IMG/VR virus record: IMGVR_UViG_3300031998_000024
Coordinates: 1 to 64,000 of that record
Strand: one strand, 5' to 3'
Length of the DNA stretch: 64,000 bases
Source: a virus
Taxonomy: Duplodnaviria > Caudoviricetes
The position numbers were made by a program, and so were the translations under genes. This document shows, in pieces, positions 5,023-46,669 of this stretch (the first letter of the stretch is position 1; every line of letters begins with the position of its first letter). Below the pieces are notes generated by a model. The model searched no databases, was not told where the DNA came from, and saw only the letters and a program-made list of their open reading frames with translations.

Positions 5023-5448
5023 ATGCCTAAATTAGAAAATCCTATACAACAACATCGAAATTTCGTCACTTCTCAGATTGAGAAATCGTTTGATAATGAA
5101 TTGCAGAAGGCAAGAAGCGGAGTTTACGCTGATACTCCAGAGAATCGCAAACTTAGCCGCGTAGGTCAACAGTATGGCGGTAAAAAGAAAGATGACAACA
5201 ATCAATTTGACGCAGTAATGCAGTCTTTTGATAAGTTATTGAAGCCGACAGATGATTGGGAGGATGAGGATTGGAATGATGATGAAATGAATAAGAAACT
5301 GAAAAAGGATATTACCAATCTCATCCGTAAGCATAAAATATCCAAGAAGCAATTTGAAAGTATTGCTAAACGCTATCAATGGCTTGATTTATCCTATACG
5401 GATTATATTCCCAACCATAGTAAAGAATACAACGCATTAAACAACTGA
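5023..5448 (+). CDS. Putative internal head protein, GVYADTPENR-tag family member 1
   Basis: IEKS and LQKA then RSGVYADTPENRKLSRVGQQYGG (5107-5181), unique C-terminal domain. Confidence 0.65.
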   Translation: MPKLENPIQQHRNFVTSQIEKSFDNELQKARSGVYADTPENRKLSRVGQQYGGKKKDDNNQFDAVMQSFDKLLKPTDDWEDEDWNDDEMNKKLKKDITNLIRKHKISKKQFESIAKRYQWLDLSYTDYIPNHSKEYNALNN

Positions 5449-5452
5449 CATT

Positions 5453-5686
5453 ATGAACGAAAATACACAACAAGAGCAACATCCTACAACAAGGCCATGC
5501 CCGCAAAATTGTTTGAAATGTACACCGATGCAGCAAATTTACTGCTGCACCAAGATGATGTTTGACCAATCCGCTACCATTCAGAAGATGGCTACAAAAA
5601 TTGAAAGTTTGGAAACAGAAATCGTCAACTTGAAGAATGAATCGCTTTTGAACAAGACCGATTCTTTCAGCGAGCCGATGAAATAA
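5453..5686 (+). CDS. Small Cys-rich coiled-coil protein (cassette)
   Basis: CPQNCLKC...YCC then heptad region. Confidence 0.7.
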   Translation: MNENTQQEQHPTTRPCPQNCLKCTPMQQIYCCTKMMFDQSATIQKMATKIESLETEIVNLKNESLLNKTDSFSEPMK

Positions 5687-5760
5687 AAATATAGCACAAT
5701 AAGGCAAGCGGTGCAGATAATAGGCTGCCGAAATAATAACAACTAAAACAACAAACAACT

Positions 5761-6243
5761 ATGAACGGAAAAACTTATGTGAATTTCCTTACTCCAGTCC
5801 CAGGGAGTACAGAAACAAGTGCATCGTATGTTTTGGGTCTGACCCATTACACTTGCGGAAACAAAAAGATGTGTGTAAACAACGCTGATGGATTCCCGAT
5901 AGCATCGAATCTTGATGTTCAGATTCTTGGCGCACCTCAGCAGTTGCAGGATGGCGTGTATTGCTGCAATGTCCGTTGTATTTGCGATTTGACCTATGAG
6001 CAAGTTTACGGATATGGATGCTGCCCGAATACTTGCCTACAAACCGAAAAGGTGGTTGCGGTGGTTTGCGTACCAGTTACATCTGATACTGTACCGACTG
6101 TATCGGCAAGTGGCGTTACGGCCAGCCCTGCCAATGTAAACTGCGGTTGTTCTTCTACCAATGAAGCAAGCCTCAATATTTCGTTTACTTTGGAAACAAC
6201 GGCTGGAGCAAATGAAACACCTAATCAAAACGGGGGCAATTAA
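5761..6243 (+). CDS. Cys-rich beta-strand protein (cassette)
   Basis: 12 Cys including CCNVRCIC, GCCPNTC, NCGC. Confidence 0.75.
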   Translation: MNGKTYVNFLTPVPGSTETSASYVLGLTHYTCGNKKMCVNNADGFPIASNLDVQILGAPQQLQDGVYCCNVRCICDLTYEQVYGYGCCPNTCLQTEKVVAVVCVPVTSDTVPTVSASGVTASPANVNCGCSSTNEASLNISFTLETTAGANETPNQNGGN

Positions 6244-6248
6244 CAACT

Positions 6249-6599
6249 ATGACTAATTGGACGGATGTTGCAATGTTGGTTTTGTCCTGCGTGTTAGCGA
6301 ATCATATGGGACTAATCGAAGCCATAGAGGGCATAATAAAACACAAGATACCTATTTTGAATTGCGTTAAGTGTTCTACCTTTTGGCTGACATTGTTTTA
6401 TTTCATATTGAATCATAACAATATGATAGTGTCCGTTGCAACATCCTTCCTTTTGTCCTATTCAGCAATTTGGTTAGAACTATTCTTTGGATTTATAGAT
6501 ACGCGCTATGGGAAAATCTACCGAAAAATCTACCAAGGTTCAGAAACCGCAACCTCCGAAAGTGCCGATTACGCTGACCCCGAAAATACCAAGAACTAA
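6249..6599 (+). CDS. Multi-pass membrane protein with CxxC (cassette)
   Basis: Hydrophobic helices flanking LNCVKCSTFW. Confidence 0.7.
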   Translation: MTNWTDVAMLVLSCVLANHMGLIEAIEGIIKHKIPILNCVKCSTFWLTLFYFILNHNNMIVSVATSFLLSYSAIWLELFFGFIDTRYGKIYRKIYQGSETATSESADYADPENTKN

Positions 6600-6635
6600 T
6601 TGTCCTAATTGTTAAACTTGAAAAGAAACAAGGAA

Positions 6636-7145: not shown

Positions 7146-7215
7146 GTGTATATGAGTGGGGTTACTGTTTGTTTTACTTCACTCATAACTTTTTAATCAT
7201 TGAAACGAAACAATC

Positions 7216-7470: not shown

Positions 7471-7661
7471 TAGTTCAAGGTACATGGACGGCGGTTAGGA
7501 TTGTCAAGGACGGTAAGGAGGCCACGATGGTTTTCCATGTTGTCAATGGTCGTCCAATACTTGTATGGCAGGCTGTACGCTCATGTTTCGGCAGCGGAGT
7601 TTGGGTGTCGGCAAAACCTTGGTTAGGACAAGAAAAGTGGAAAAACAAGAAAAATTACTAA
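7467..7661 (+). CDS. Small tail-fibre-associated protein
   Basis: VWQAVRSCFGSGVW...PW motif; coupled to the DGR target gene. Confidence 0.65.
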   Translation: MIVQGTWTAVRIVKDGKEATMVFHVVNGRPILVWQAVRSCFGSGVWVSAKPWLGQEKWKNKKNY

Positions 7662-7664
7662 AAT

Positions 7665-10600
7665 ATGGCAAGAATTGAAAACATTGATGAACCTTGGGAA
7701 GGACACGAAGGTATTGAAGTTGAAATATTTGTTAAAGAAGAAATTGTTTCATTGCAAAATGAGGCTATTGGCGATGTAGAACTTGGAGAAATTGACCAAG
7801 AGCGCAGTACTATTCCGTTGAGTTTTTATAAGGTAAGTGATACCGACCATGAAGACCCTACAACCGTTGATATTCCGCTTGCTGGAGAAACTGGAACGGT
7901 TATTGTCCCGAAGGTGACTACACAACTCTACCAAACGCAGCAGGTGGTCAAGTTAGGTGATACTATTCGCGTAAGATGGACTTACGACTGCATCAAGACA
8001 GAAGATGGGGCATCTGAAAGTACCACTGATAAGGCGCAGACATTGATTATTACAGTGAAACTTGGCCAAGCGACCATTTATAGTGAAACAAGATACAATG
8101 TTGCTCCTCAGACCAGCGACATTATTACAATTGGTCCAGATTTGGTTACGGATGCTGGTGTCGTAAATGTTATGGTTGTTGCAACAACATATATTGCAGA
8201 ATTAGACGAAACTAAGACTGCGAGAAGTTCAAAATCAGTTAATGTAACTGCCATGAGGATTACCGCAACCTTTAATCCAGCATCATATTTGAATAGCGGT
8301 GGTTACGGTAGCGGTCAGTCTGTATCAATTCCTTATAGTTACAATGTGCCGCGTGATGGAGCGACATTTAAGATTTGGCTTGATGGCGTGGTTGTGCAGA
8401 CTTATAACATAAGCGGTAGCGGTCGCAGCACCTATTTCTTACCTGTTTCAGAACTTACGGCAGGCAGGCATAATATCCAGATGCTTGCTGAAGGTGTCGG
8501 ATTGGTTAGTAATGCTCTTTCATTTGATTTTCTGAAACAAGGTAGCACAGCAAGTTATCTTGGTATGGCTTTGGATTGCGAAATTGCGGAAGCGCCAACG
8601 CAAGGAAACACGCCGTTGAATTGGTCATACGGTATAGATACTGTCCTATTGTCGGTGAATCAGTTTGAATCTATTGGTCTTGACTTTGGCGTGTGGGTAG
8701 ATGGAGAGTTGACGCATAACGTGGAGATTATTGTTGATGGAATAGTTACGCAAACCATTGAGGCTGATAGGTCATTACAGCATGTTTCGCAGCGTTTCGA
8801 TGTAGCAGACTCGCATACGATGGTTGTTAAGGTTGATAATGTCATATATCGCTCCTTTGATGTGACGGTGGTTGCGGCAGAGAGTGTGACCGAACATGAG
8901 GCTGAGGGATATGTAAACAAACTTACTGCCATAGGACGCAGCAACAGCGAGCCAGAGCCAGAACGCTCAGATTGGGGTGGTATTACTACTTTTAGCGGTG
9001 TAGACTGGAACACTACGGGCTGGATTACTGGTAGCGATGGCGTTCCTGCGCTTGTGCTGAAAAATGGCGCGAAGGCGATAATTGATATTAAGCCGTTCAT
9101 ATTAGACCAATCCGCTGGCGATTACTCCATTAATAGAGACGGTATGACAATTCAGTTTGAACTTATGCTGTCGCAAGTGACTGAGCGTGGAGCAATAATA
9201 GTTGAGTGTCTAAACGATAATAGCGGCCAAGGTTATCCGATGGGCTTGAAACTAACCACAGCAGAAGCGGCATTACTGGTAGGAGGTTATGAGGAAATCA
9301 AGACCGCCGACAAGATGACTAATGATAACGGTAACTATATCAGTTTTACAGAGGCTCAGGTTAGCGTTGGTGATTCAGTTGTTGGATTTTATGAGCGTAT
9401 TACTGAACACGTTTATGTTATGACTACTGACACAACAGCTTTGAGTGGAAAGACTTATTATGAAGCGGTTATTGAAAGTGATGAAGAAGATGCTGCCGAC
9501 CTTTATATTGTGAGGGCTTCTGGTGTATCAGCCAATATTGCAACAGATATATGGATTGATATTTCATATGTAGTCACGCCTATACAGAGTGATGGTTATG
9601 GTTTGACGATGCTCTATATTAATGGTGTTTTGAGTCGTGCAAGTCGTTACAATGCGTCACTTATTCAGAGTATGCCTCAACCTATTGTGTTTGATAGTGA
9701 TAATGCGTACATCAGACTGCGCGGGTTACGATATTACCGCCGTGCTTTGATTGCTGATGATGTACTTGGTAATTGGATTATTGACCGTCCTACTGGTATT
9801 GATATTCAGGACATGCATATTAAGAATGCTGTTGGTGATTCGTCTGGTACACTTGATATTGATGGTAATATTGCTATTGATAAAGAAGCGTTGGTTTCAA
9901 AGGGAAGGGGTGTGCTGACTGTTATCCGCAGCGGTGATAGCGGTGATGGTCTTACCGACCTTTTCAATTGCGTTGACAAAAAACAAAACTTCAAGGCAGA
10001 CCTTGTAAGATGGGAGCCGCCTTTGGATGATAATGGAAACCCAATAGGACAAGGGTTTGAAGCGAGGAATATCCGCATGAGGATTCAGGGAACATCGTCT
10101 GTTAAATATCCGTATAAAAACCTTCGTTTCTATCTTACTACAGCGCAGGACGGCACCCGTTCATTGGTTATTGGTGGTATAGATGTGACAGATACAGCAT
10201 CTGGTTATCCTTTACGCGGTGTTGCCAACTCCATCGAACAAGCTGTGCTTTGTGCTAAGACTGATTTTGTTGATTCGTCTTTGGCGGGCAACACAGGAGG
10301 TGCTCATCTGTTCCATAACACTATGATGGAATTAGGTTTGCTTACACCGCCGCAAGATTATGATAGCCGTGTTCGTCAAGCCATTGATGGTATTCCTTGC
10401 GATATTTTCTCTGGAACTGACGAGGCTGGAACACTTACTTATTGCGGTCAGTTCGTGCTGAACAATGAAAAGTCGAAATCGGGTAAGATTTTTGGTATGG
10501 AAGGTATTAGCGGTTTCACACCAGATTGTGCTATTGCGCTTGAAACTTTGAATAATTCTTCACCTATGACCTTGTTCCACCCTGCTGGTAGTGCAGACAG

Positions 10601-13600
10601 CCAAAATCTGGCTGACCAACTTGCCGCTGAATTCGATAACGGTATGGAGTTCAATTTTCCTGAAGATGCAAAATGGGATAATGTCGATGAGGGGCAATGG
10701 GATGATGAGAAACAGAAGTGGGCTGTTAAGCCTGTGCCTGGCGCAAGAGCCGCAATCAAACGCTGGATGGGTTGGATTTACGATTGTATGATACAAACCG
10801 CAGGTGTGCAGAATGAAACTATGACCATCGCCAATCCTGACTACGGCACTTCGGCAGGATGGAGTGATGAGAGTAAGGCTAAGTGGATTTGTACTAAGTT
10901 TAAGACAGAAGCGGTTCAATATTTCAATGTAAGTCATTTGCTGACTTATTATTTGATTATTGATTATTTGGCAGGTAAAGACCAATTAGTGAAAAATATT
11001 CTTTGGCGTACTTGGGATGGCTTGAAATGGTATAGTACCTTCTATGATGGCGACACATGGGAGGCTATCCGTAATGATGCTTTCATTGTCTATCTTTACA
11101 ACATTACTCGTGACAGTTATGACGCTGAACGCTCTAAGTATGCCTTTGAGGGTCATGCATCATGGTTATGGTGTTTAGTGCTTGCTAACTTTGAAACAGA
11201 ATTGAGGCAATGTGCAGCATCATTGCGCAACCAACTGACCAACCAATATATGCTCAACGAGTTTGTCGGAACAATGATTAGTAACTGGAGTGAGCGTCAG
11301 TACAACAAGAGCGGCAAATTGAAGTACATAGACACTATTAACACGATGAACTATGTCTATACGCTAACTGGTAGCCGTGAGGCACATATAAGGGCATTCC
11401 TTACTAATAGGGCTAAACTACTTGACGCAAGGTATTCAGTTGGTGGTTATAATGGCGATGTTGTTACGCTTACCGTTGTAAGGGCTTCTACCGACACACC
11501 TTCATCATTGGAACTGACCAGTGGCGACCTTTACTATTTCGGCTATAAACTGAATGGAATTTGGTTGCAAGGGCCAACGCAAGTAAAGGATGGAGAAACG
11601 CTAACACTCAACTTCACACAAACCCTTTCCACTAATGACCCGTTAATGATTGGTGGTGCAAGTTGTATTAAGGAAATCGACTTTACTGAAATGGGAAGCC
11701 AGTTGAATGGTAATGTTGGGCTTTCACTTTGCGCAATGTTGGAAAAGATAGTGATGCCCGCAACAAATGGCGCGGCAAACGCACCGCTTATTCTTGGTAA
11801 CATTTCAAAATTGCAATATGTTGATATTACGGGTCAGACCGCTGTCAATACGGGCGTGGCTGGCGTTCTTGACCTATCAAATCAAAGTCGTCTTGGGGTG
11901 CTGAAAGCGCAAGGTACGGGTTTGACCTCCGTGTTGATTCCTGACGGCGCACCTCTAACTACGCTTGAACTTCCATCAACGCTGACCATGTTGAGACTGC
12001 GCTACCTAAACAAACTGACAATGGACGGACTGACGCTTGAAAACGCTAATGCCTTTACTGCGCTCAACTACGCTGATTGTCCTAATTTGGATTGGAAAGA
12101 TATTCTAACGCAATGCCAAAACATTCGCACTATCCGTGTAGAAGGTGTGAGCGGCAGGGTGCGCAGTGAGTACCTCCGCCAGTTTATGACGGGATGGAAC
12201 GGTATTGATGCGCAAGGTAACACACAAACCTATCCAGCCCTTATTGGTACGGTGATATTGATTGACACGCCAAACGACTATCAAGACATCCGTACATTCT
12301 TTGAGAATTGCGGTTTGACGGTTTTGGAGAGCCAATTCACGGAATATTGGTTTGACGACACGGTAAGCGACCCTGCTAACATCACCAATGAGGACAACAA
12401 GACTGGGTATGCTTATGCCGTGACTGGAACAACAGGGCATCCTAACGGCTACTATCCTTCTGGCCACGTTAGCAAGATTCGCGACAAGTGCCAGATTGTT
12501 TCAGGTTTGGTGAATCCATCGACACACAAGATGCGCTGCGAGAAAATCTCAAAGACCAATCTTAACCAAAAGGCTGATGGTACACAGTTTGACCCGTCAG
12601 ATAGCGGAAATGATGGCTATGATGTGTTTCTTTATGTACCAAAGTATTGGTATAAGGGTGTGAATAATTTCAAGGTTGGCAGAAAACACTTGTTTTTGTC
12701 TGCAAACACAGAGTGTCCGAATAGTACGGCATCTTCTGTAAATCGTACAGCCATCGCCACGCTGCTCTTTGCTGCTGACCATGCTGTTGATAATAGTGCT
12801 ATTGCTGTTGGTGATACGCTTAATGAAAACAACTTACTTTCGTTACAAGGTTATTCTGTTTATCGGTTTAACGTGGAGGGAATGAAACAAGTGCGTTTCC
12901 CATCCGTAAAAAGTAATTATTATTCACACGCATTTACTGATGGAGATAATAAGGCGATTGCTGTTACCAACCTTGTAGTGCCGATTGGATACAACGCCGC
13001 TGGAACGACCGTGCTTTCACCAGCCGATTTTGACAATACTATTGGTGATTACGACATTCGTGAAGTGCCAAGCGGAGCAAAATGGCTTTACTTTACAGCC
13101 ATGAGTAGTATTGACCAAAATTTAGAGGTTATTGCCGCTGATACTCTTGAACTGGAGGCTATGGAGCCTGATTGGGTGGAGCATAAGAGTGAACTTATAG
13201 GTATTTATCAAGGTTTTGCCACTGGTGTTACTACTGGCGGTACAGCCACAAGTGGACTTCGCTCTATTAGCGGTAAGACGGTGTCGAGAGGTAATAATTC
13301 TCAAGTCACTAACACAGGTTGGACATATGACACGAATGGTAATCCTACTAATTTGCCATCGTCAAGTCTTAACGGTACGGCGCAAGATTTCTTTAACCTT
13401 GCTCTTTATAGGAATATTCAGACTGGGGTTTTGGAAGGACAGTACACTACGGTGCGTTATGAGACATCGAAGGACATGGCTAATCTGATAATGGCTTGGT
13501 TTGGTACAAGGGATGTGGAGACTATTGTAGGTAGGGGTTCATCGGTTGGTGAAACTACTGGTGTGGGAAATGCTATTGCTTTTGGCGATTCTGCTTTTTA

Positions 13601-17076: not shown

Positions 17077-18159
17077 ATGAATAATCCAATAGAACAACAC
17101 AGAAGATTCGTACAGAATCAGATTCAAAAGTCATTCGACAACGAATTAGAAAAGGCAAGGTATGGTGTTTATGAAGATAATGCAGAAAACCGCAGACTAA
17201 ACAGAGTTGGTCAAGAGTATGGCCACGCAGCTCAGGAGAAACAACCTGCCGCACCTCGTCAGAAAAAGCAAGACGAAGAAAGCAAGAATTTGTCTGATAG
17301 TGCAAAAGAAGCATCAACTGGAGCATTGAAGCGTGCCGCCGCTGACGAGAATGCTAAACCTAAAATTAGGGAGGCTGCTGAAAAAGAGTTGAAAGAGAGA
17401 GGTGAAAGTAGTGAGCAAAAAAAAGAAGATAAAGCGAATTCAATATCAATAGAAAGCATAGAATCGTGCAATACAAATATTGATGATTCTAATAAAAATT
17501 TATTTGCTTACTCAATTAAACAAAGTCCTTATCATCCAAGATATGGAAACGGTCAAGAACAAGATGTGATTCATGTTAGGATTCGTGCAAATAAAAAGGA
17601 TGCATTAAAGGAAATCAAATCAATGAATGAAAAATTGGGTATTAATTTATCTATTGACGATTTTGAACGCACACCTCCTGGTAGATATGGAGATAATACA
17701 TACGATATACAGTATAATCCTAAAACAGGCACTTGGGGTAATGGTAGAGAAATAAGTGATGAGTTAAATTCAGAATGGTATGAACAAAACTCTGAATCTG
17801 AGAAAAAGGCTGAAAAGAAAAATACTATGGATAAATTAAAGAGTTCGCAATCTTTTACAAAAGAATCTATTAAAGATTTACTCGATAATGATGAGGTAAA
17901 AGACCATGCTTTTTCGTATTTTAATTATGGTGATGATGGAGATTGTTCTCCAGAAGAAATTGAACAATTTGAAAAACTTGAAAAACTTGGTGCAAAGATT
18001 AGCGATTATTTTGATTGGAAAGAAGATGGTGATGCAGATTCATATAAAATGAAAATGCAAGCAAAGGGTTATCGCATGTTTGATATTTCAACCAGCGATG
18101 GTTATTTATGGTTGATGATAAAGAATAATAAATTGTCTAAGTCTGAAACAAAAGAATAA
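17077..18159 (+). CDS. Putative internal head protein, tag family member 2
   Basis: IQKS, LEKA then RYGVYEDNAENRRLNRVGQEYG (17152-17223); leader homologous to that of 5023. Confidence 0.65.
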   Translation: MNNPIEQHRRFVQNQIQKSFDNELEKARYGVYEDNAENRRLNRVGQEYGHAAQEKQPAAPRQKKQDEESKNLSDSAKEASTGALKRAAADENAKPKIREAAEKELKERGESSEQKKEDKANSISIESIESCNTNIDDSNKNLFAYSIKQSPYHPRYGNGQEQDVIHVRIRANKKDALKEIKSMNEKLGINLSIDDFERTPPGRYGDNTYDIQYNPKTGTWGNGREISDELNSEWYEQNSESEKKAEKKNTMDKLKSSQSFTKESIKDLLDNDEVKDHAFSYFNYGDDGDCSPEEIEQFEKLEKLGAKISDYFDWKEDGDADSYKMKMQAKGYRMFDISTSDGYLWLMIKNNKLSKSETKE

Positions 18160-18490
18160 TATCAGTTATAGTCTATTAAAATTCATAAATTATGGTTACA
18201 CTTGAAGAAGTTTTCAGAAAGTCACAAGACAATCTTACAAAGTCATTCGATGCAGAGAAATTCTCATCAGACATCGAAAACCTATCAAAGGCAGAAACAG
18301 AGTGGCTTTTAGGACAAATTCAAGCCGAAATCCTCAAAGGCGGCGATTACAACACGCTCACCGAAATGCGCGACATCGCATTAGGTAATATAGAGAAAGC
18401 AAGAAGCGGAGTTTACGCAGACACCTCAGAAAATCGTAAGTTAGGCAGAGTAGGTCAGCAGTATGGCGGCAAAAGTAGTCGTGGAGGTAA
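18145..18490 (+). repeat. Dispersed ~340-bp repeat, copy 1 (copy 2 at 44616-44960)
   Basis: Near-identical from gaaacaaaagaataatatcagttatagtc through the leader coding region. Confidence 0.92.
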
Positions 18491-18755
18491 GCAAACAGAA
18501 GGTTTGGGGTCTAATTCTGTGAAGAAAATTGCCAATGCTATGTATCAAAATAGCAAATTTGCATCAAGAATAGAATCATTATTATCAGAGCATCTTGGTG
18601 ATGAATTGAAAAAGAAATACGGCACTGATGATTTTGCTGATATTTTTGATAAAGTCGGTGAAGATAATTATGGTAAAGTTGTAATGAATCTAATTCGTAA
18701 ATTACCTGTTGACGAAGTTCAAAACGCTTACAATTCTTATTTTCAGAAGAAATAA
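18192..18755 (+). CDS. Putative internal head protein, tag family member 3
   Basis: FRKS, LTKS, LSKA, ILKG, IEKA then RSGVYADTSENRKLGRVGQQYGG (18396-18470). Confidence 0.7.
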   Translation: MVTLEEVFRKSQDNLTKSFDAEKFSSDIENLSKAETEWLLGQIQAEILKGGDYNTLTEMRDIALGNIEKARSGVYADTSENRKLGRVGQQYGGKSSRGGKQTEGLGSNSVKKIANAMYQNSKFASRIESLLSEHLGDELKKKYGTDDFADIFDKVGEDNYGKVVMNLIRKLPVDEVQNAYNSYFQKK

Positions 18756-19104
18756 CGTAATTACTAATTTTGTAAGTATAAAAGATTTGAATAGAGATTT
18801 TGAAAATCTTGATTGGGATAAGGCAAGAGATATTATTGACGGTAATGTTGATAGTTATAAAGATGTTGAAAATGCTTCTGATAAAGATAAAAGGTTGTTG
18901 AAGTTTATGGAAGATGTTGGTTTTTCATGGGGTGATGCAAATGAATATGATAAAAATCCTGAGAAATATAGGGATAATGCAGAAAGAAAACATATTGCTT
19001 GGTTCCATGTTAATGGCGGTAGTGAAACTTGTATAATAGAAGCGCCAATGAAGAAAGTAAATGCTGTTCTTGATAAAATAGTAAGAGGGGAATGGACTTA
19101 TTAA
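18709..19104 (+). CDS. Hypothetical protein, possibly a frameshifted continuation of 18192..18755
   Basis: Protein-like open frame, but only a TTG start inside the upstream gene. Confidence 0.45.
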   Translation: MTKFKTLTILIFRRNNVITNFVSIKDLNRDFENLDWDKARDIIDGNVDSYKDVENASDKDKRLLKFMEDVGFSWGDANEYDKNPEKYRDNAERKHIAWFHVNGGSETCIIEAPMKKVNAVLDKIVRGEWTY

Positions 19105-20084
19105 ACGGATACAAAAATCCAGCGCCATTATTAATAGAATTTGAACCAACAGAAGGATGTAACCTTGGTTGCTCCTTTTGCGGTTTAAGGGGCATAAGAG
19201 AAACAGGTACGAAGCCGTGGAAGTTTCTTTCAGTTAGAAATGCTCAAATTATTGCAAGCAAAATACGCAAAGAGCGTTGGAAGACAAGAATAGCAATTTG
19301 CGGTCATGGTGAACCAACCTTAAATCCTAATTTGCTTGAAATCATTAGGGTTATTCGTGAAGAATTACCTTTTAATGATATTACAATGATGACCAATGGT
19401 GTTGGATTTAGGAATGGTAATTTTGATTTGAAATCGTTTTGCGCTGAATTAGAAGAATTAGGTTTCAATGATATTGTTTTTGATGTTTATTCTAAAAATG
19501 GTGATTGGAATGTTGTTGATGAAATAAAAGATGATTATGATATTATTATAATGGGTGATGAAAGAAATGGAAAGAGTTTTAGTAATAAGATTTTAAAAAC
19601 TAAATTAAGGATATTATTATATCCACTTGAGTTACCTAATCACCCAAATTGGCGTAAGATGGCAAATCATTGCGGTGCTGCTGCTCCGTTAGATTTCAAA
19701 AAAAAGCATATTACTTGCACTAAGGTATTCCGTGAAATGTTCATCCGTTGGGATGGCAATGTCGCCTTATGTTGCGATGATTTTAGAGGTCAATATTTTA
19801 TTGCTAATGCCTTACAAGAAGATTTGAAATTAAGGGATATTTGGAATCACGAGCGATTTCAAGCAGCAAGAATTAGGCTGTTTAACAAAGATAGGACTTT
19901 CAAACCTTGCTATGGCTGTAATTGTCCACCTAATAGAGCAGGTTTTATCCCAGATATTTCGGGAGGCAAAGATAGAATTTACATGCCTACAGAAATAAGT
20001 GAAGATGTAATTAGGATTACTAATGAGGCTTACTTAAAGGATGGCTTAACAACAATAGTTAAGCGTAAGTGGGAGCAAGATTAA
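19092..20084 (+). CDS. Radical SAM protein with SPASM/twitch domain
   Basis: CNLGCSFC, GHGEPTLNP, MTNG, C...IRWDGNVALCCDD...CYGC. Confidence 0.9.
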   Translation: MDLLNGYKNPAPLLIEFEPTEGCNLGCSFCGLRGIRETGTKPWKFLSVRNAQIIASKIRKERWKTRIAICGHGEPTLNPNLLEIIRVIREELPFNDITMMTNGVGFRNGNFDLKSFCAELEELGFNDIVFDVYSKNGDWNVVDEIKDDYDIIIMGDERNGKSFSNKILKTKLRILLYPLELPNHPNWRKMANHCGAAAPLDFKKKHITCTKVFREMFIRWDGNVALCCDDFRGQYFIANALQEDLKLRDIWNHERFQAARIRLFNKDRTFKPCYGCNCPPNRAGFIPDISGGKDRIYMPTEISEDVIRITNEAYLKDGLTTIVKRKWEQD

Positions 20085-20212: not shown

Positions 20213-21775
20213 ATGGCAAGGAATAATTTTGAATTTTGGTGTCCGTTAGATAGCGTCAACAAAGCAATAGACGAAAAGACTGGTGAAGAGATAATGTTGC
20301 TTGGCGGAATTGCTTCAACAGCAGATGAGGATTCTGATGGAGAGTTTCTTGACCCCAAGGGATTTGATATCAAACCTTTGTTGAAAAGCGGTTTAGTGAA
20401 CTGGCATCACCAGGCAAAGACAAATCCTGGTACAATCGTTGGTGAGCCTACAAAGGCAGAAATAAGAAAAGAAGGGTTGTATATTGAAACGCAACTATAT
20501 CCTCATAGTCAGGTTGCTTGCGATATTTGGGAGTTAGCAAAAACGCTTGCTTCAGATTCAAAAACACGCAGACTTGGATATTCAATTGAAGGTAGAGTTG
20601 TGAAGCGTAAGAGTGAAGACCCGACAAACCCAGATTACAAAAAGATTGTTCAAGCTGTAATTACTGGAGTTGCTATTACTCATCAGCCGAAAAACCCTAA
20701 AACATTCGCAAATATAATAAAGGGTGAAATTGATGAGATGGAAGATGAAGAGGTTGAAGAGATAAAAGAGAAGCAAGAAAATGCTGAAACTGAGGAGGCG
20801 ATTGATACGGAAAATGCCGCTGCTTTGAAAAAAGAAGATGTTGATGATGACTTAAAAGTTACGACTTTTGGAAAATCAGAGGTGTTCGATAAAATTTTTC
20901 AAGACATACCAGGTATAAGTATAGCAAAAGCAAACCAAGTTTATCATTTAATTGAAAAAATTGTAGATATGAAGAAAGAAAATTCAGAGATTACTCAGGA
21001 TGATATCAACAAGGCATATGAGGCTTTGGGTCTTGAAATGCCCGCTATTGATATTGTAAAGGCTGGAGAATCGGATGAAACCGATGAAAGCAAGGAAACT
21101 GAGGAAACAGAAGAAACTGAAGAGAAACCTTCCAAGACCGAAAAGAAATCTGACGAAGAAACTGAGGAAACAGAAGAAACCGATGATGGCGAGGTTTTTG
21201 AAAAGGTTGATGATGAAGAGGAGGATGAAGAGGAAGGTAAAAAGGTCAAAAAGGCTAATCAAAATTCAATCGGTTTGAAGTTTGAGCGCATTGAAAAGGC
21301 AATTGCCGCTTCTCACAATTCTCAGTCTAAGTATGTAAAGGCACTTGGAGTTATGTTCAAGGCTCAGAGCATTCAGTTGGAAAAGGCTCAGCAATCCCTT
21401 AATCTTGCTATTGAAACGATTAACAGTCAAAGCGATATTATTAAGGGGTATGAGGATAAACTCAACTCTTTGAGCGAACAGATTACCGAAATTGGTAATG
21501 GCGTGCCTGCTCCTAAGTCGGTAAGAAATGCCCGTCCAGTTGAGCGTGCCTTTGGTAAGGCTCAGGAAAACGACTTTGAAAAGGGCGGTAATGAAAACCG
21601 AGTAAGCATCAATAATCGTTCTGCTATTTCGGAAATTCTTGACCAAGCAACTTTTGCTAAGGGATTCGATGAGGAATTTTCTAAGGCTTGCACTTCATTT
21701 GAAGCAGGTGCTCCTTTGTCGCAGAATGTAATCAACAGAATAAAGAACGAATTTGGAATAGAAATCGTCAAATAA
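20213..21775 (+). CDS. Prohead protease fused to acidic/coiled-coil scaffold
   Basis: GIASTADEDSDGE, NWHH, LGYSIEG, VAITHQPKNP motifs; directly upstream of the capsid gene. Confidence 0.85.
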   Translation: MARNNFEFWCPLDSVNKAIDEKTGEEIMLLGGIASTADEDSDGEFLDPKGFDIKPLLKSGLVNWHHQAKTNPGTIVGEPTKAEIRKEGLYIETQLYPHSQVACDIWELAKTLASDSKTRRLGYSIEGRVVKRKSEDPTNPDYKKIVQAVITGVAITHQPKNPKTFANIIKGEIDEMEDEEVEEIKEKQENAETEEAIDTENAAALKKEDVDDDLKVTTFGKSEVFDKIFQDIPGISIAKANQVYHLIEKIVDMKKENSEITQDDINKAYEALGLEMPAIDIVKAGESDETDESKETEETEETEEKPSKTEKKSDEETEETEETDDGEVFEKVDDEEEDEEEGKKVKKANQNSIGLKFERIEKAIAASHNSQSKYVKALGVMFKAQSIQLEKAQQSLNLAIETINSQSDIIKGYEDKLNSLSEQITEIGNGVPAPKSVRNARPVERAFGKAQENDFEKGGNENRVSINNRSAISEILDQATFAKGFDEEFSKACTSFEAGAPLSQNVINRIKNEFGIEIVK

Positions 21776-21805: not shown

Positions 21806-23290
21806 ATGGAAAGACTTTCAATCAATCTGAGCGATTATGGCTACCAAGGTGTTAATGGCTATGGTCAGGGAAACATGGGTGAGGTTGATGCTCTTAACAA
21901 GGCTTTGGCTGCTGGTGAAATCACTGGCCGCGAAACCACGAACATGACCGATGCTTCGGGTTCACCTCTGAAAGTTGAGAGTTTAGAGAAAACTCTGAAA
22001 CACTTGACTTTCCGTGAAAGCGACATCCGTCTGTGGAAGGACATCCCTAAGAAACCCGCTTACAACACCGTTGAAGAGTACAATCAACAAGTTAGTTACG
22101 GTCAAGACCGTGGAGGCTTCAATGCCGAAGGTGAACTGCCTGAAGAAGAAGACAGCGTGTTTGTCCGTAGGTCGCAACTGGTTAAGTATCTTGGCGTGAC
22201 CAAGAGCGTGACCCACCAGATGACTTTGGTGAACACTATGATTGGTAGTGTTATGGAAAAGACCATTAAAGATGGCACCCTGTGGATTCTGCGTAAACTT
22301 ACTAAGTCGTTGTACTTTGGTGATGAGCAGTTGATTCCGCTTGAATTCAACGGATTCCTGGCTCAACAGAAGCAGTCTGACGCTTGGGCTAACTACAACC
22401 AGTACATGACCAGCGAACATGTGATTGATATGCGCGGCGCAAGCCTCGATGAGAGTGCTATTGAAAGCGGTGCTAATTCAATCGTGGAGAGTTTCGGTCT
22501 GGCTACTCAGTTGTATGCCGCTCCTGCCGTTCTTAGCGGATTCGTGAAACAGTTCTATGGCAACAAGTTCATAATGCCTAACACTCAGGCTTTGACGAAT
22601 GGTGTCATGGGTCAGCGCGTGCAACAGTTTGAGAGCCAATTTGGTCCAATCGGTTTGAACCAAGATGTGTTCTTCAAGAAGTTGCCTGCTAAGGCTGCCA
22701 ACGCTGCTGCTACAAGTGAAAAGGCTCCCACTAAGCCCACTATCACTGCTTCAGCTGTTTCTGCTGGTGCTGCTAACTCTAAGTTCACCTCAAGCGATGC
22801 TGGTAACATCTATTACGCTGTTTCGGCTATCAACCGTTATGGCGAATCAGACCTTCGCATTGCTGGTTCACCTACCGCTGTTGCCGTTGTGGCTACTGGC
22901 GCTGTTGATATTGCGATTACCGATGGCGGCGGTCTGCATCCTGCTACTGCTTATCGTATTTATCGTACAATGGCTGGCGCTGGTGCTGATGGTCCGTTCT
23001 ATCCGCTGTTCGATGTTTCGACTGCGAATGTGACCACTGGCTTCGATGGTGCTACTGCTGGTTCGGTGCGTGACCTTAACCGCTTCATGCCTAACTGCGA
23101 CCAGGCTATGCTTGTGCAGTTCGACAATGAGGTTGTTGAGTTCGCTCAACTTGCACCTCTCATGAAGATGGATTTGGCTCTGCTGAGTCCTGCTTACCGC
23201 TTCATGATTCTGCTCTATGGTACTCCATTCCTGTATGCTCCCAAGAAGATGGTTCGTATCATCAACATTGGCGCTTACAAGGCATCCTAA
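21806..23290 (+). CDS. Major capsid protein (SPO1/Twort-like)
   Basis: LKVESLEKTLKHLT, TVEEYNQ, EGELP, ELAPLMKMDLA-like and LYGTPFLYAPKK motifs; strongly biased codon usage; terminator downstream. Confidence 0.9.
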   Translation: MERLSINLSDYGYQGVNGYGQGNMGEVDALNKALAAGEITGRETTNMTDASGSPLKVESLEKTLKHLTFRESDIRLWKDIPKKPAYNTVEEYNQQVSYGQDRGGFNAEGELPEEEDSVFVRRSQLVKYLGVTKSVTHQMTLVNTMIGSVMEKTIKDGTLWILRKLTKSLYFGDEQLIPLEFNGFLAQQKQSDAWANYNQYMTSEHVIDMRGASLDESAIESGANSIVESFGLATQLYAAPAVLSGFVKQFYGNKFIMPNTQALTNGVMGQRVQQFESQFGPIGLNQDVFFKKLPAKAANAAATSEKAPTKPTITASAVSAGAANSKFTSSDAGNIYYAVSAINRYGESDLRIAGSPTAVAVVATGAVDIAITDGGGLHPATAYRIYRTMAGAGADGPFYPLFDVSTANVTTGFDGATAGSVRDLNRFMPNCDQAMLVQFDNEVVEFAQLAPLMKMDLALLSPAYRFMILLYGTPFLYAPKKMVRIINIGAYKAS

Positions 23291-38110: not shown

Positions 38111-39019
38111 ATGATTTCAGATATTGCTAATAAGTTTCAAGAGATAACGAAATTTAATTTGTATTCGTATTTTGAAGATTACGCAAATTTTATGCGTAAT
38201 CAATATCCAAGCGTGCGTGCATATTTCGCTGGAAATTCTGAATCAATTGATGCGTCTTATATGGATATGCTTAGTTCGCTTTCAAGCCGTAGTGATGATT
38301 TGTTGAAACTTTTTAGCGCGTTTGGTCCCAAATTAAGCAATGTTGGGTATTGGGAATTGCAGATTTATTGCCAGGATTTGAATGATACGATAAAGAAGGT
38401 TGAAAAACTACCTAAATATTTGCGTACATCTAAGACACCAAGAGGTTATAAGCCTTATGTTCAGGTGAATTTTAATGTTGGTGGTTTAAGGGATTTTCGT
38501 GATATTGCAAGTCGTATCAATTCAGACGAAATAACAGAAGAGAGTTTGATTTTGGGGAATGATTTTGAGGAGGAGGATTATGAAATTGATACTTTAACAA
38601 ACGCTATGGCGTTTTATCAGAACAACCGCGATGTAGTTGTTCAAACTATTCTTGAAGAGCCTGTTGATAGTAAGGTTTATGGTAGGGATATAAATAGAGT
38701 GATAAAATTTGTTTATAATGATTTGGATGTTGTTAAGTATGAAGATAATATCACTCAAAAGGTGGAAATACTATGTGAATTAGTTAGGGGTAGTGTTCCC
38801 GAAATGCCTAAATTTGGACGCAAAAACATTAGTGGTAATAATTTCGGGGCATATAATTATCCTGAGTTGGCGAGAGAAATTCAAGGTGTTTTTCTTCAAG
38901 ATGACCTTTTTGATAGCGTTGAGATTGAAAATATACGAATTGAGAATGGCGATGTTTACATCACGCTCAATATTAGAACAAAGTACATTTACACTATAAA
39001 AAAGACATTAGTGATATGA
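38111..39019 (+). CDS. Baseplate wedge protein (gp25-like C-terminus)
   Basis: RGSVPEMPKFG...LQDDLFDSV pattern; upstream of baseplate J. Confidence 0.55.
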   Translation: MISDIANKFQEITKFNLYSYFEDYANFMRNQYPSVRAYFAGNSESIDASYMDMLSSLSSRSDDLLKLFSAFGPKLSNVGYWELQIYCQDLNDTIKKVEKLPKYLRTSKTPRGYKPYVQVNFNVGGLRDFRDIASRINSDEITEESLILGNDFEEEDYEIDTLTNAMAFYQNNRDVVVQTILEEPVDSKVYGRDINRVIKFVYNDLDVVKYEDNITQKVEILCELVRGSVPEMPKFGRKNISGNNFGAYNYPELAREIQGVFLQDDLFDSVEIENIRIENGDVYITLNIRTKYIYTIKKTLVI

Positions 39020-40236
39020 TAACTAAAATTACATCTGTTGATAATTTGAAGCAGATATTTGCTGAGATTCTACTAAATAAAACCGATGAAATCAGCGATA
39101 TTAGCAATGAAAGTGTTTTGAACGGAGTTGCTTATGGATGCGCTAAACTTGCTCAAAGGTTGTTAGTGAATCAAGGTGTTGTAGAAGGTCATTTATTTCC
39201 AGATACAGCATATGGCGAATATCTTGACGAAATAGCGAAATCACGTGGTATAGCACCGCGTTTTACATCGTTTGGTTCTACTACATATGTAAGGGTTCAA
39301 GCCGATAGCGGAACAGTTTATCCAATTGGTACTATGTTTTTATCATCCAATGGTATTCAGTTCGTTTCAACTGAAAATTATACTGTTGGAATTGATGGAT
39401 ACGGATTTATTAAGGTTAATAGTATTCAAACTGGTTCTGCTTCTAATGTTGATGCACTAACAATCAATATGATTTCAGGTACTGCTCCAACTGGACATAT
39501 AGCGTGTACTAATGATTTCGCTGCAACTGGCGGTCGGGATAATGAAAGTGATGACGATTTCCGTATAAGGATAAAGGCTTCAGTAAATCAATTGGCGAGA
39601 AACACAATGTCTTATTTGGAGCAGATTTTTATGAAGATAAATAAGAAGGTTTTGCGTTTACATCGTGGCGGTACTGATGAGAATGGTAGAATAACACTTA
39701 TTGTCGTTTCAGTTAATGGTCAGGATTTTACTCAAGCTGAATTTGATGAAATTTTATCTCAGGCTGAAGAGTTCTTATCATTAAATGAAATAACGCGTGA
39801 AACAGTTAGCGGATTTCCGATTAAGTTGGTTAATCCTGATTGGTATCCAGTTGATATAGATTTCCGTTGCGATGTTGACCCAGCGTATGACCAATCTATG
39901 GTGCGTAGAAATATGCAACTTGCTGTTTCAAAATTATTTGATTATCGTTATTGGGGTGTAAATGAAAAAGTTGAGTGGGAAAATATTTTGTATGCTATAA
40001 GAAATGCTGACGGAGTTCGTTATGTTGCTGATGCTTACTTTTTACCGCAGGGTGATATCAATATGACTAATTTCCGTTTACCGCGTGTAAGAGGTTTTGT
40101 TGTTAGGGATTTAGACGGAGGTGTTTTATACGATAATCATAATTATAGTGTAATTGGAAGATTTACTTATACAGATTATTTCTTTCCAAACACGCCTGAT
40201 TTGAATTTTCAACAATCTGTAATCAGTAGTATATGA
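39016..40236 (+). CDS. Baseplate J-like protein
   Basis: TAYGEYLDEIA..RGI, GSASNVDALTI, ATGGRDNESDDDFRIRI. Confidence 0.88.
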   Translation: MITKITSVDNLKQIFAEILLNKTDEISDISNESVLNGVAYGCAKLAQRLLVNQGVVEGHLFPDTAYGEYLDEIAKSRGIAPRFTSFGSTTYVRVQADSGTVYPIGTMFLSSNGIQFVSTENYTVGIDGYGFIKVNSIQTGSASNVDALTINMISGTAPTGHIACTNDFAATGGRDNESDDDFRIRIKASVNQLARNTMSYLEQIFMKINKKVLRLHRGGTDENGRITLIVVSVNGQDFTQAEFDEILSQAEEFLSLNEITRETVSGFPIKLVNPDWYPVDIDFRCDVDPAYDQSMVRRNMQLAVSKLFDYRYWGVNEKVEWENILYAIRNADGVRYVADAYFLPQGDINMTNFRLPRVRGFVVRDLDGGVLYDNHNYSVIGRFTYTDYFFPNTPDLNFQQSVISSI

Positions 40237-44630: not shown

Positions 44631-44960
44631 TATCAGTTATAGTCTATTAAAATTCAAAAAATTATGGTTACACTTGAAGAAGTTTTCAGAAAGTCACAAG
44701 ACAATCTTACAAAGTCATTCGATGCAGAGAAATTCTCATCAGACATCGAAAATCTATCAAAGGCAGAAACAGAGCAATTGTTAGGTCAAATCCAAGCCGA
44801 AATCCTCAAAGGCGGCGATTACAACACGCTCACCGAAATGCGCAACATCGCATTAGGTAATATAGAGAAAGCAAGAAGCGGAGTTTATGCCGATACTCCA
44901 GAGAATCGCAAACTTGGTCGCGTAGGTCAACAGTATGGCGGCAAGGGCAGTCGCGGAGGT
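44616..44960 (+). repeat. Dispersed ~340-bp repeat, copy 2
   Basis: Matches 18145-18490. Confidence 0.92.
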
Positions 44961-45269
44961 CAGCAAGAAGATGATGAAACAGTTAAGCAGAAAATAAATC
45001 AACGCAAGAAGAATTATTTCATCAAAACAATGAGGGATGATGGTTGTAATAAAGATGATGAAATGTTTATTTCCAGACATGAGGATAGTTTCAAAGATGT
45101 TTTGAAGAAATACGGATGGGATGGTTGGGATGATTTTTATGAAAGTGACGATTGGGATTGGAATAATGATAAGGATATTAAGAAATTTAATAAGATTTTC
45201 TTTGAATGCGTTAAGCAAATTCCAGCATCAGCGTTTGGAAAACTTTATGATGATAAACATTTCAAATAA
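44664..45269 (+). CDS. Putative internal head protein, tag family member 4
   Basis: First ~99 aa nearly identical to 18192 gene, tag at 44868-44942, unrelated C-terminal domain. Confidence 0.7.
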   Translation: MVTLEEVFRKSQDNLTKSFDAEKFSSDIENLSKAETEQLLGQIQAEILKGGDYNTLTEMRNIALGNIEKARSGVYADTPENRKLGRVGQQYGGKGSRGGQQEDDETVKQKINQRKKNYFIKTMRDDGCNKDDEMFISRHEDSFKDVLKKYGWDGWDDFYESDDWDWNNDKDIKKFNKIFFECVKQIPASAFGKLYDDKHFK

Positions 45270-45286
45270 AGCAACACTTAATAATT

Positions 45287-45730
45287 ATGACTGCCCAACC
45301 AAGTTCAAATCAAGGATATGTTCCGCGCACTTATGACCAAGTTGTTGCTATAATTAATGAAACGCTTACTGGTCGTGAGGATGGTCACGAGATATTACCT
45401 GAAGAACATGAAAGTATGGCGAGAGCGATACTTGATTATGCTCGTTCAACTCAAACCAGCGGTTCATGTCCGTTAATGGGATTTGCCGATACAAAAACAG
45501 TTCCGCAGGTAACTAATGCTATGCGTTGTTTTTATGTTTCATTGGTTGGTAATAATCAAACAATGACATTTTCTAATTTTAGGGATAATTTAGGCAATTC
45601 TATAGAAGTTGATACCGATGAATTTGAAATTAAAATCGTTATCCTAATGTGGAATACATCATATTGGGAAGCGATGGAAACATCTTTGGATTTTGCTGAC
45701 TTGATAAGATTAAATATTGAAAATTCATAA
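45287..45730 (+). CDS. Hypothetical protein
   Basis: 147-aa ORF in operon. Confidence 0.65.
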   Translation: MTAQPSSNQGYVPRTYDQVVAIINETLTGREDGHEILPEEHESMARAILDYARSTQTSGSCPLMGFADTKTVPQVTNAMRCFYVSLVGNNQTMTFSNFRDNLGNSIEVDTDEFEIKIVILMWNTSYWEAMETSLDFADLIRLNIENS

Positions 45731-45742
45731 ACACATTACAAA

Positions 45743-46669
45743 ATGGATAAGCAACAATATGTTAGCGTAGGCAACATCATCGAACAAGAGCGTTTGCGCC
45801 GTCAGGCTCAAATTTCTAAGGGTATTCAATCAAACCCGATAGACCATATTGAAAAAGCCTACAATGAAGATTTCGGTGGAAATCTTGAAAAGGGATTTGA
45901 AGATGAAAATTTAATTCGCTTTGCCAGCGATATTTCTGAATTCAATAAAGCAGAAACGGAATTTGCTCTTCATAAGATTCAGCGTCAAATGAATGCTGAC
46001 CCTGAAAGTGAACTTTTGAAATCAATGCGTACTATTGCTCTTAATCATATCAATGATATTGAGAAGGGTGTTTACGCTGATACTCCAGAGAATCGCAAAC
46101 TTGGAAGAGTTGGTAAGCAATACGGAGGTAAGGGTAGCCGTGGCGGTAAGGTTCATGAAACACAATGGGAACAAGCCGCTAAATGGGATGATGCTTATGA
46201 ACAGCATTATAAGGAAAAACATCTTATGATTGATTCAAGCGGTTATCCTGCTAATAATCACCCCAAGGTTGAGCGTTTGAGAGTTATTAGCCTGAAGGGT
46301 GATAAAGCAACTCCTGAAGAGAAAAAGGAAGCAAAGGAAATTCAGGATGAAATTAAGAAGCAAACTGAAGCCTTCAAGGAAAGTGCAAAAGATTATGGTT
46401 TGAGACAAATATCTAAGACCGCTGAATCTTTTAGTAAGTATGGTCCAAGAGTTGGTGTAAACAAGATGTCTAAAAAGATGTTGGATAAGGTTGGCGCCAA
46501 TTTCGGAGTTACTTATAGCAAGGGTGATTACAATGTTGAGGCTATGTGCTATAAGGATAATGATGGTAGCGAGGTTTGGTCTGTCTATGAAGATAAAGAG
46601 GGTGGTAAGGATAAAGAGTTTGATAACGAGAAAGATGCTGTGAAATTTTTTGGTAAGTTGATAGTTTGA
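45743..46669 (+). CDS. Putative internal head protein, tag family member 5
   Basis: ISKG, IEKA, LEKG, FNKA, LLKS, IEKG then VYADTPENRKLGRVGKQYGG (46064-46129). Confidence 0.7.
   Translation: MDKQQYVSVGNIIEQERLRRQAQISKGIQSNPIDHIEKAYNEDFGGNLEKGFEDENLIRFASDISEFNKAETEFALHKIQRQMNADPESELLKSMRTIALNHINDIEKGVYADTPENRKLGRVGKQYGGKGSRGGKVHETQWEQAAKWDDAYEQHYKEKHLMIDSSGYPANNHPKVERLRVISLKGDKATPEEKKEAKEIQDEIKKQTEAFKESAKDYGLRQISKTAESFSKYGPRVGVNKMSKKMLDKVGANFGVTYSKGDYNVEAMCYKDNDGSEVWSVYEDKEGGKDKEFDNEKDAVKFFGKLIV

Follow-up and report, generated by a model that had tools for sequence, protein, structure and literature searches.

The 123,871-bp (124-kb) genome of a Bacteroidota phage with an SPO1-type head, part of which is the 64,000-nucleotide stretch analysed here (the window), encodes six otherwise unrelated proteins that share a leader and a 20-residue peptide, the tag. 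Five of the genes are located in the window, the sixth outside (Table 1). The sequence (K)ARSGVYADTPENRKLGRVGQQYGG is common to all six proteins, and is found behind leaders rich in the motif hydrophobic-x-K-[A/G/S]. A six-frame scan of the window with the regular expression N[RK][RK]L[GSN]RVG returned exactly five matches, all at the positions first noted, and all five ORFs, on the plus strand, translate as first described; the five dispersed genes with a shared tag, reported by the initial annotation, were thus recovered. The two leader types that it had distinguished, here called A and B, were also found, and gene 5 combines both.

Table 1. Position of the tagged genes, of their parts and of head and neighbouring genes. 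Coordinates refer to the window, except for the sixth tagged gene; sites are hydrophobic-x-K-[A/G/S], and ↓ marks a predicted cut.
Feature	Position	Strand	Remarks
Tagged gene 1	5023..5448	+	141 aa
Gene 1 type-A leader	5023-5109	+	IEKS and LQKA sites
Gene 1 predicted cut	after K29 (5107-5109)	+	
Gene 1 tag	5110-5184	+	
Gene 1 payload	5185-5445	+	
Tagged gene 2	17077..18159	+	360 aa
Gene 2 type-A leader	17077-17154	+	IQKS and LEKA sites
Gene 2 tag	17155-17229	+	followed by HEAT-like helix pair, then 230-aa payload
Tagged gene 3	18192..18755	+	187 aa; small payload
Gene 3 type-B leader	18192-18398	+	acidic, helical, five sites
Gene 3 tag	18399-18473	+	
Radical SAM/SPASM gene	19092..20084	+	between tagged gene 3 and protease gene; context
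Prohead protease/scaffold fusion	20213..21775	+	residues 1-165 (20213-20707) match phrog_1028; acidic scaffold-like C-terminal part
Major capsid protein (MCP)	21806..23290	+	phrog_752 match
Predicted MCP propeptide end	21899-21904	+	LNK32↓A33
Tagged gene 4	44664..45269	+	201 aa
Gene 4 type-B leader	44664-44870	+	five sites
Gene 4 tag	44871-44945	+	
Tagged gene 5	45743..46669	+	308 aa; 180-aa payload
Gene 5 composite A+B leader	45743-46066	+	six sites
Gene 5 tag	46067-46132	+	
Portal protein	54147..55916	+	
Protein with C-terminal InPase domain (PF18823)	61367..62836	+	context
Sixth tagged gene	120937-122139 of genome		outside window; 400-aa ORF; tag HMM match

The tag is a basic peptide of the form (A-R-S-)G-V-Y-x-D-x-x-x-N-R-K-L-G-R-V-G-x-x-Y-G. 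In the tag alignment 13 of 29 columns are invariant, and each copy is scored by the tag HMM at 69-79 bits. The HMM search, proposed in the initial annotation, returned the five copies and also an unforeseen sixth, at genome positions 121126-121209. The tags of genes 3 and 4 differ by about 11 synonymous codon changes, which indicates conservation at the protein level. The first 183 nt are identical in gene 3 and in the sixth gene, and on this basis the leader cassettes recombine. The pattern A[AT]TT[CT]A[AT]AA occurs upstream of five of the six tagged genes and of 3 of 134 other plus strand genes; it is given little weight, having been derived from the same tagged genes.

No Pfam, NCBIfam or PHROG model matches the tag, apart from spurious sub-threshold rows on repeat proteins, in agreement with the earlier remark that it is not a named domain; it models as a short peptide motif instead. 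A literature search for the tag motif strings retrieved no relevant paper, and an ESM Atlas search with leader plus tag scored no higher than 0.77 and provided no lead. The patterns of glycyl-radical enzymes (RVxG[FY]), mycofactocin (GVY), YD repeats, RHIM and AT-hooks do not match it. AlphaFold2 (AF2) models feature a helical leader, a poorly ordered strand-turn-strand tag, a disordered linker and a folded payload.

The leaders contain 25 hydrophobic-x-K-[A/G/S] sites in 394 residues, as compared with 2.3 expected (Poisson p ~9e-18) and with only 3 in 1107 payload residues. Expressed per 100 aa, the density is 6.3 in leaders, 0.27 in payloads and 0.59 genome-wide; shuffled leaders equalled the observed count 0-9 times in 5000. 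The same bias is seen in 55 single-tag metagenomic relatives (5.5 in leaders against 0.35 in payloads). When 80-aa site clusters are ranked genome-wide, the densest are those of the protease/scaffold protein, followed by the tagged proteins with type-B and composite leaders; the short type-A leaders have two sites each. The last site always directly precedes the tag, as the initial annotation had stated, and 158 of 191 phage-type tags (83%) have a site 10 or fewer residues upstream, with the predicted cut mostly 5 residues before the tag Tyr. The site is kept across indels (IEK↓ARSGVY versus IEK↓AVY), and in gene 5 the predicted cut falls directly at IEK↓GVY. Type-B leaders are acidic, with a charge of -5 to -6, and the tag carries +3. 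In phage DAC16 the leader sites are less regular.

Sites of the same type are found in the head proteins. The protease/scaffold protein, presumed to act both as processing enzyme and as assembly partner, contains 17 of them, the genome maximum in density. Both its phrog_1028 match and the phrog_752 match of the MCP are SPO1-like, not T4-like. The predicted MCP propeptide end is conserved with the SPO1-like junction DVDALNK↓ALEAG, as found in the MCP of SP82G, whose scaffold has 11 hydrophobic-x-K-S sites; the corresponding DAC16 junction is LQK↓A. In phage 812 the MCP has VVK24↓S25 and the scaffold seven V-x-K-S sites; the 439-aa PDB chain 9row begins at residue 25 of the precursor, 5lii being the 463-aa sequence. 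The leader sites, read initially as likely prohead protease sites, are therefore of the type that occurs in the scaffolds and at the MCP propeptide end, both in this phage and in SPO1-like and Twort-like phages; the specificity of the protease for Lys sites is what we infer from these sequence patterns and from the length of the one PDB chain. Compared with Herelleviridae heads (phage 812 MCP, SPO1/SP82G MCP and scaffold), the hydrophobic-x-K↓[S/A] site is the same and the MCP propeptide junction homologous, but the descriptions there concern structural and scaffold proteins, while here the leaders of the tagged proteins carry it too.

Neither megablast nor full-length tblastn of the tagged genes found a match in 50,697 phage records. 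The 27-aa tag, searched at a relaxed E-value, identified in the same set only six DAC/SJC Bacteroides phages, and no tagged cargo family was found in these records beyond them. A profile search matched 1,555 cluster representatives, some share of them animal repeat proteins; the analysis covered the best 150 of the 1,555. In 29 of 39 related IMG/VR loci a portal homologue is followed, a few kb further downstream, by a tagged gene, and in 30 of 39 the next gene after the tagged one is a homologue of the InPase protein; in some loci the tagged gene comes shortly before protease and MCP. Four tagged genes are present in the cultured phage DAC16 (DAC16_76, _79, _82 and _196), whose host is B. thetaiotaomicron; DAC16_196 lies between the MCP gene and DAC16_192, a presumed portal with an N-terminus like that of the window portal. 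These head-morphogenesis neighbourhoods sustain the link to the head system made in the initial annotation. In the window, about 1.4 kb separates tagged gene 3 from the protease gene downstream of it; gene 2 is the most conserved tagged member in relatives.

The six payloads have no significant pairwise similarity, and the five window proteins have no match in Pfam (E up to 1), PHROGs or NCBIfam. In relatives, payload domains include Zeta_toxin, NUDIX, DUF5661, a weak GNAT match and an AAA-type P-loop, as catalogued through the tag search. Of these, NUDIX, zeta toxin and P-loop ATPase are enzyme domains of a kind commonly seen in injected phage proteins. The payloads may indeed be called interchangeable, as proposed at first. 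No recognisable anti-defence domain, however, is present in the window payloads. Structure prediction, also suggested at the outset, gave a helical, folded payload for gene 4 (pLDDT 80-94), with no PDB fold match by Foldseek (P0004, E >= 0.7); for gene 2 (P0002, mean pLDDT 62) the best VIA-align hit, Z 6.0 over a 42-residue helix pair, was uninformative. Some relatives carry two tags together with NUDIX, DUF5661 and a weak GNAT match, and large NUDIX, zeta-toxin or DUF5661 proteins of 500-1400 aa contain 1-3 internal copies of the tag, in some of them far from the N-terminus (residues 443, 689 and ~1090). An N-terminal address is therefore not universal: the common N-terminal tag initially described holds for the window proteins, where the tag is predicted at the exposed end, and not for some large relatives, where it is internal.

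Kinases of molluscs, cnidarians and starfish, and a RING protein, also contain the tag core (YVDNAQNRKLGRVG, 14/14 identical). These invertebrate Ser/Thr kinases and the RING protein carry YVDNxxNRxLGRVG in tandem, in 4-13 copies within Ser-rich linkers. As in the phage, a short peptide between flexible linkers is attached to an enzyme; the differences are the animal origin of the proteins, the 4-13 copies and the near absence of the cut site, a K-[A/G/S] site being present upstream of only 4 of 283 repeats. Since invertebrate kinases carry tandem copies, the tag is not phage-specific, and since the same core occurs in proteins without a capsid, its job is not capsid-specific.

Taken on sequence grounds, the six genes probably encode capsid-internal, protease-trimmed cargo, a Lys-site analogue of the T4 capsid targeting sequence (CTS) and internal proteins. 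Each protein would be made with an N-terminal propeptide co-assembling with the protease/scaffold core of an SPO1-type procapsid. The prohead protease would cut after Lys in hydrophobic-x-K↓[A/G/S], reducing the leader to peptides of about 7-24 residues. The last cut would fall 2-6 residues before the conserved Tyr, so that the mature protein would start with the 20-residue tag peptide and continue through a flexible linker into the variable payload. The payloads would form a swappable kit, including in relatives NUDIX, zeta-toxin-type kinase, P-loop ATPase or GNAT, and would probably leave the head together with the DNA. Being retained, basic and unfolded, the tag would most likely tether the cargo to some ligand within the head, for which DNA is, as a guess, the leading candidate. 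Its role as a DNA or ejection handle, and that of the leader as the targeting part, are likewise guesses; packaging, cleavage, ejection and the tag ligand are what we infer from sequence only. The capsid-loading system postulated by the initial annotation is partly supported, through architecture, site statistics, synteny and payload diversity.

The T4 capsid targeting sequence and internal proteins were reportedly described by Mullaney and Black in 1996. In T4, the precedent is given by the CTS and the internal proteins IPI, IPII, IPIII and Alt: unrelated proteins share an N-terminal propeptide ending in a prohead protease site, remain inside the head once mature and leave it together with the DNA on ejection, and the cargo varies between related phages (PMC9026906). 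DarB, with the N-terminal packaging signal of the P1 Dar system, is another (PMC9024508). Like the T4 internal proteins, six unrelated proteins share here an N-terminal leader. However, the leaders have neither homology to the T4 CTS nor the gp21-type L/I-x-E cleavage rule. Capsid and protease are of SPO1/HK97-type lineage, versus gp21 in T4; the predicted cut follows Lys, versus Glu in L/I-x-E; the leaders have 26-108 residues and 2-6 sites, versus 10-19 residues; and the mature cargo is predicted to keep a conserved 20-residue peptide, unlike in T4.

NUDIX, GNAT and InPase domains are typical of head-packaged polyvalent proteins, which have two to fifteen effector domains per polypeptide (Iyer, Burroughs, Anand, de Souza and Aravind 2017, PMC5512222). 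The likeness extends to the NUDIX and weak GNAT payloads of relatives and the neighbouring InPase, the head-gene neighbourhood, the predicted co-delivery with DNA and the 500-1400-aa multi-domain forms of relatives, and the tagged payloads add a zeta-toxin-type kinase to the repertoire overlap. In contrast to polyvalent proteins as described there, the payloads are mostly single and on separate genes, the window proteins have no Pfam domain, and a prohead-protease-type site and the tag precede each unit, in place of release through an MPTase autoprotease domain; the tag was not found among the domains of that paper. MuF-type polymorphic toxins and SPP1 gp7 fusions were discarded, no Phage_Mu_F domain being present in the tagged proteins (Pfam, E up to 1).

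If the capsid-loading model is true, SPO1-type phages of gut Bacteroidota would have their own head-loading rule, consisting of leader, Lys site and retained tag. For this little-studied group of phages, sequence could then be used to predict injected proteins, candidate host-takeover or anti-defence cargo could be catalogued, and Bacteroides phages might be loaded with foreign proteins, as has been achieved for T4 and P1. What is odd in the model is the tag kept on the cargo, an unannotated peptide motif with no T4 counterpart.

The proteins could still be head cargo with the roles of leader and tag reversed relative to T4, the tag being a loading or anchoring signal that docks on protease, scaffold, portal or inner capsid wall, and the leader a removable mask or spacer. 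We regard this as unlikely, while giving it some credence. The leaders differ between this phage, DAC16 and other lineages, the tag being far more conserved; the tag occurs inside large polyproteins, each time with a site before it; and acidic leaders could neutralise the basic tag until their removal. However, MCP, portal and scaffold have such sites but no tag, which is therefore unnecessary for protease recognition; the type-B leader, too, is conserved, as a helical unit of 65 residues, some of them invariant; and capsid-specific docking leaves the identical core in animal kinases unexplained. That the proteins never enter the virion, and are intracellular host-takeover proteins whose short linear motif docks on a conserved host or phage factor, seems quite improbable to us; the K-[A/G/S] motifs would then be merely features of amphipathic helices. 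The tag does behave as a short linear motif, the animal copies are attached to signalling enzymes, and the window copies are dispersed, with genes 1, 4 and 5 outside the head module. Yet sites are over 15-fold commoner in leaders than in payloads, which fall below the genome mean, the site-to-tag spacing is fixed, the site type is that of MCP and scaffold, and related loci keep the tagged gene in the head module.

The radical SAM/SPASM gene directly follows tagged genes 2 and 3, and 23 of 39 related loci have a homologue within 6 kb of a tagged gene; the tag might accordingly be a recognition or core sequence for this enzyme, in RiPP or protein maturation. Such a role is very improbable, given that DAC16 lacks a radical SAM gene (no PF04055 match) in spite of its four tagged genes, that the tag has no Cys, that the tagged proteins are 140-400 aa long with folded payloads, and that the enzyme matches no peptide-maturase equivalog. 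The neighbours of the radical SAM gene in relatives are homologous to the PIG-L deacetylase and glycosyltransferase genes (62934, 63625), which suggests a DNA or sugar modification module; it is probably not part of the tagged-cargo system.

A broader and improbable reading takes the tag as an old portable ligand-binding peptide, common to phage-packaged cargo and invertebrate signalling enzymes, and possibly horizontally moved. Phages would use one protease-exposed copy per cargo, tying it to the genome or to a bacterial structure, and molluscs, cnidarians and echinoderms would array 4-13 copies before kinases or RING ligases, sensing the same ligand. If true, it would represent a new cross-kingdom recognition module. 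What the tag peptide binds is a directly testable question, raised by the near-identical invertebrate kinase copies; for the portable peptide, the candidate ligand would be nucleic acid or a conserved bacterial component.

The virus record is complete (123,871 bp, with direct terminal repeats; the window is its first 64 kb), has a GC content of 37% and carries nearly all its genes on the + strand. The phage, a myovirus, has a head module of the SPO1 type. Its closest cultured relatives are the Bacteroides thetaiotaomicron phages DAC16, DAC19, DAC20, DAC22, DAC23 and SJC03, with 46% identity in the major capsid protein (MCP), followed, by MCP similarity, by a Chryseobacterium phage and then by Bacillus SPO1-like phages.

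Features of the phage genome (window positions, unless marked as genome)
Feature	Position	Remark
Tagged genes 1 to 5 (starts, + strand)	5023; 17077; 18192; 44664; 45743	
Sixth tagged gene	genome 120937-122139	400-aa ORF, beyond the window
Large ORF	7665-14090	2141 aa; phrog_14959 (E 9e-295)
Reverse transcriptase-like ORFs	14457-15409	phrog_1423
Radical SAM + SPASM gene	19092-20084	
Protease fused to acidic scaffold-like tail	20213-21775	phrog_1028
Major capsid protein	21806-23290	phrog_752
Tail sheath	27767-29419	
Baseplate wedge subunit	39016-40236	
Homing endonuclease-like ORF	48528-49427	phrog_314, phrog_655
Portal	54147-55916	
HNVGD module genes	60192-61355; genome 65130-67409	
InPase-domain gene	61367-62836	489 aa; PF18823, C-terminal
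PIG-L deacetylase and glycosyltransferase homologues	62934-63623; genome 63625-65070	
Site-rich ORF	genome 67431-69935	

The initial annotation had described five genes, each encoding an N-terminal leader, a shared peptide of about 20 residues (the tag) and a variable C-terminal payload, as a candidate capsid-loading system. The translations of the five ORFs agree with that description, a six-frame scan found exactly five tag copies in the window, and a sixth lies beyond it; 13 of the 29 aligned tag positions are invariant, and pairwise similarity among the payloads is not significant. The reading that we moderately favour is that these proteins are predicted head cargo: the leader would carry the cargo into the head, and the prohead protease would trim the leader, thus exposing a retained tag. 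The principle would be that of the capsid targeting sequence and internal proteins of phage T4 (reviewed in PMC9026906); the tagged system differs in its capsid lineage, in its predicted cleavage rule and in the extra peptide that would be retained.

Both leader types proposed at the outset are present. Type A, of about 30 residues, consists of an amphipathic helix followed by I-x-K-S-F-D-x-E; type B, of about 70 residues, is acidic and helical, with many positions invariant across 13 homologues; in 45743 an A-like part is indeed joined to a B-like part. The first 183 nt of 18192 and of the sixth gene are identical (window 18192-18374, genome 120937-121119), as are about 47 nt upstream of 18192 and 44664, whereas the tag codons of the latter two differ at about 11 synonymous positions. 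It follows that leader cassettes recombine, while the tag is kept constant at the protein level. The stretches of identical nucleotides suggest that the tagged genes have recently undergone gene conversion or exchanged cassettes. All tagged genes except 5023 have an A[AT]TT[CT]A[AT]AA element 12-28 nt upstream of their start codon; the enrichment of this element (5 of 6 tagged genes vs 3 of 134 other + strand genes) is partly circular, because the pattern was derived from these same genes.

The putative protease sites, hydrophobic-x-K-[A/G/S], are concentrated in the leaders. Their density is 0.59 per 100 aa in the whole predicted proteome, 6.3 in the six leaders (25 sites vs 2.3 expected, p about 9e-18) and 0.27 in the six payloads; in 55 single-tag metagenomic relatives, leaders and payloads show 5.5 and 0.35, respectively. 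When proteins are ordered by their densest stretch of 80 residues, the protease/scaffold protein (17 sites in total) is first, and the four tagged proteins whose leader is type B or composite follow; the short type-A leaders hold two sites apiece.

Support for such sites being maturation cuts comes from capsid proteins. The phage's own MCP carries LNK32/A33 (the slash marks the predicted bond) exactly where similarity to other MCPs starts, and DAC16 has LQK9/A10 at the equivalent position, with VQKG, VQKS, IEKS and LEKG in its scaffold. In the SPO1-like phage SP82G, the MCP contains DVDALNK/ALEAG and the scaffold eleven hydrophobic-x-K-S sites. For Staphylococcus phage 812, whose scaffold has seven V-x-K-S sites, the MCP precursor contains VVK24/S25, and the PDB holds chains of 463 (5lii) and 439 residues (9row), the latter starting, by alignment offsets, at residue 25. 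Together, these sequences support a Lys-specific maturation rule that would be conserved in this capsid lineage.

A tag profile, run against 1.84 billion representative proteins, gave 1,555 matches (E up to 0.001). Among phage-type tags, 158 of 191 (83%) have a site no more than 10 residues upstream; the distance from bond to Tyr is mostly five residues (K/ARSGVY), otherwise two (K/AVY or K/GVY) or six, and the site is kept despite an indel deleting A-R-S. Tag and site form a unit. The tag need not be N-terminal: some proteins of 500-1400 residues, which carry NUDIX, DUF5661, zeta-toxin or weakly matching GNAT domains, have one to three copies of it inside. There, a site precedes every copy, and in one common family two tags lie about 43 residues apart. 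Processing at every site would yield fragments each starting with a tag, which favours a tag that acts after cleavage.

As the initial annotation had supposed, the tag is not a recognised domain: in the AF2 models it is predicted to be a short peptide motif (strand, helical turn, strand; pLDDT about 60-79, poor to moderate confidence), between a helical leader and, after a disordered Gly/Ser/Lys linker, a folded payload. Five of the six copies have a net charge of +3, and type-B leaders one of -5 to -6. The motif is without annotation in Pfam, a literature search found no publication on it, and structure prediction and family searches matched the phage's payloads to no known fold or family.

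The strongest profile matches are animal proteins, from gastropods (Biomphalaria, Physella, Bulinus, Aplysia, Plakobranchus, Candidula), bivalves (Saccostrea, Mercenaria, Mactra, Mya), the cnidarian Hydractinia and the starfish Acanthaster. They contain 4-13 tandem Y-V-D-N-x-x-N-R-x-L-G-R-V-G-x-x-x-G-S copies in Ser-rich linkers, preceding a Ser/Thr kinase domain; one protein combines the copies with RING fingers instead. The phage's sixth copy and a Biomphalaria kinase, in its first repeat, have an identical YVDNAQNRKLGRVG core (14/14). Scaffolds carrying the animal genes reach 83 Mb, which makes contamination an unlikely source. The Lys site stands upstream of only 4 of 283 animal repeats; it is therefore something that phages have added to a peptide that is older or shared. 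As a guess, a ligand that is universal, nucleic acid for example, would suit both settings.

Of 39 IMG/VR loci, 29 have a portal gene with the tagged gene a few kb downstream, and 4 have the tagged gene just upstream of protease and MCP, like 18192 here; in 30, the tagged gene is directly followed by a homologue of the InPase-domain gene. This gene also matches PHROG families annotated as DarB-like antirestriction, minor head protein and virion structural protein, and the domain is typical of head-packaged phage polyvalent proteins, where it is linked to NUDIX and GNAT (Iyer and colleagues, PMC5512222); its product is likely a packaged effector. DAC16 has four tagged genes, one of them between the presumed portal gene and the MCP gene, with payloads including a zeta-toxin-type kinase and a P-loop ATPase. 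The tag is also found beside packaging genes in a different phage lineage (PF04860 portal).

The radical SAM gene, located within the head module between the third tagged gene and the protease gene, matched no NCBIfam equivalog, and DAC16, which has tags, has no such gene. In relatives, its homologue adjoins PIG-L deacetylase and glycosyltransferase homologues; from this context, it more likely belongs with DNA or sugar modification genes.

Two genes encode a second shared module, KA/HNVGD...W(T)EYxPGKFDW, straight after a hydrophobic-x-K/A site; this, too, may stay on head cargo as an N-terminal module. The site-rich ORF has four sites within its first 80 residues. The large ORF, without Pfam domain, matches a family of unknown function. 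Two adjoining ORFs match consecutive parts of a reverse transcriptase family, and look like one such gene with a broken reading frame. The homing endonuclease-like ORF lies between the tail/cargo region and an exonuclease gene.
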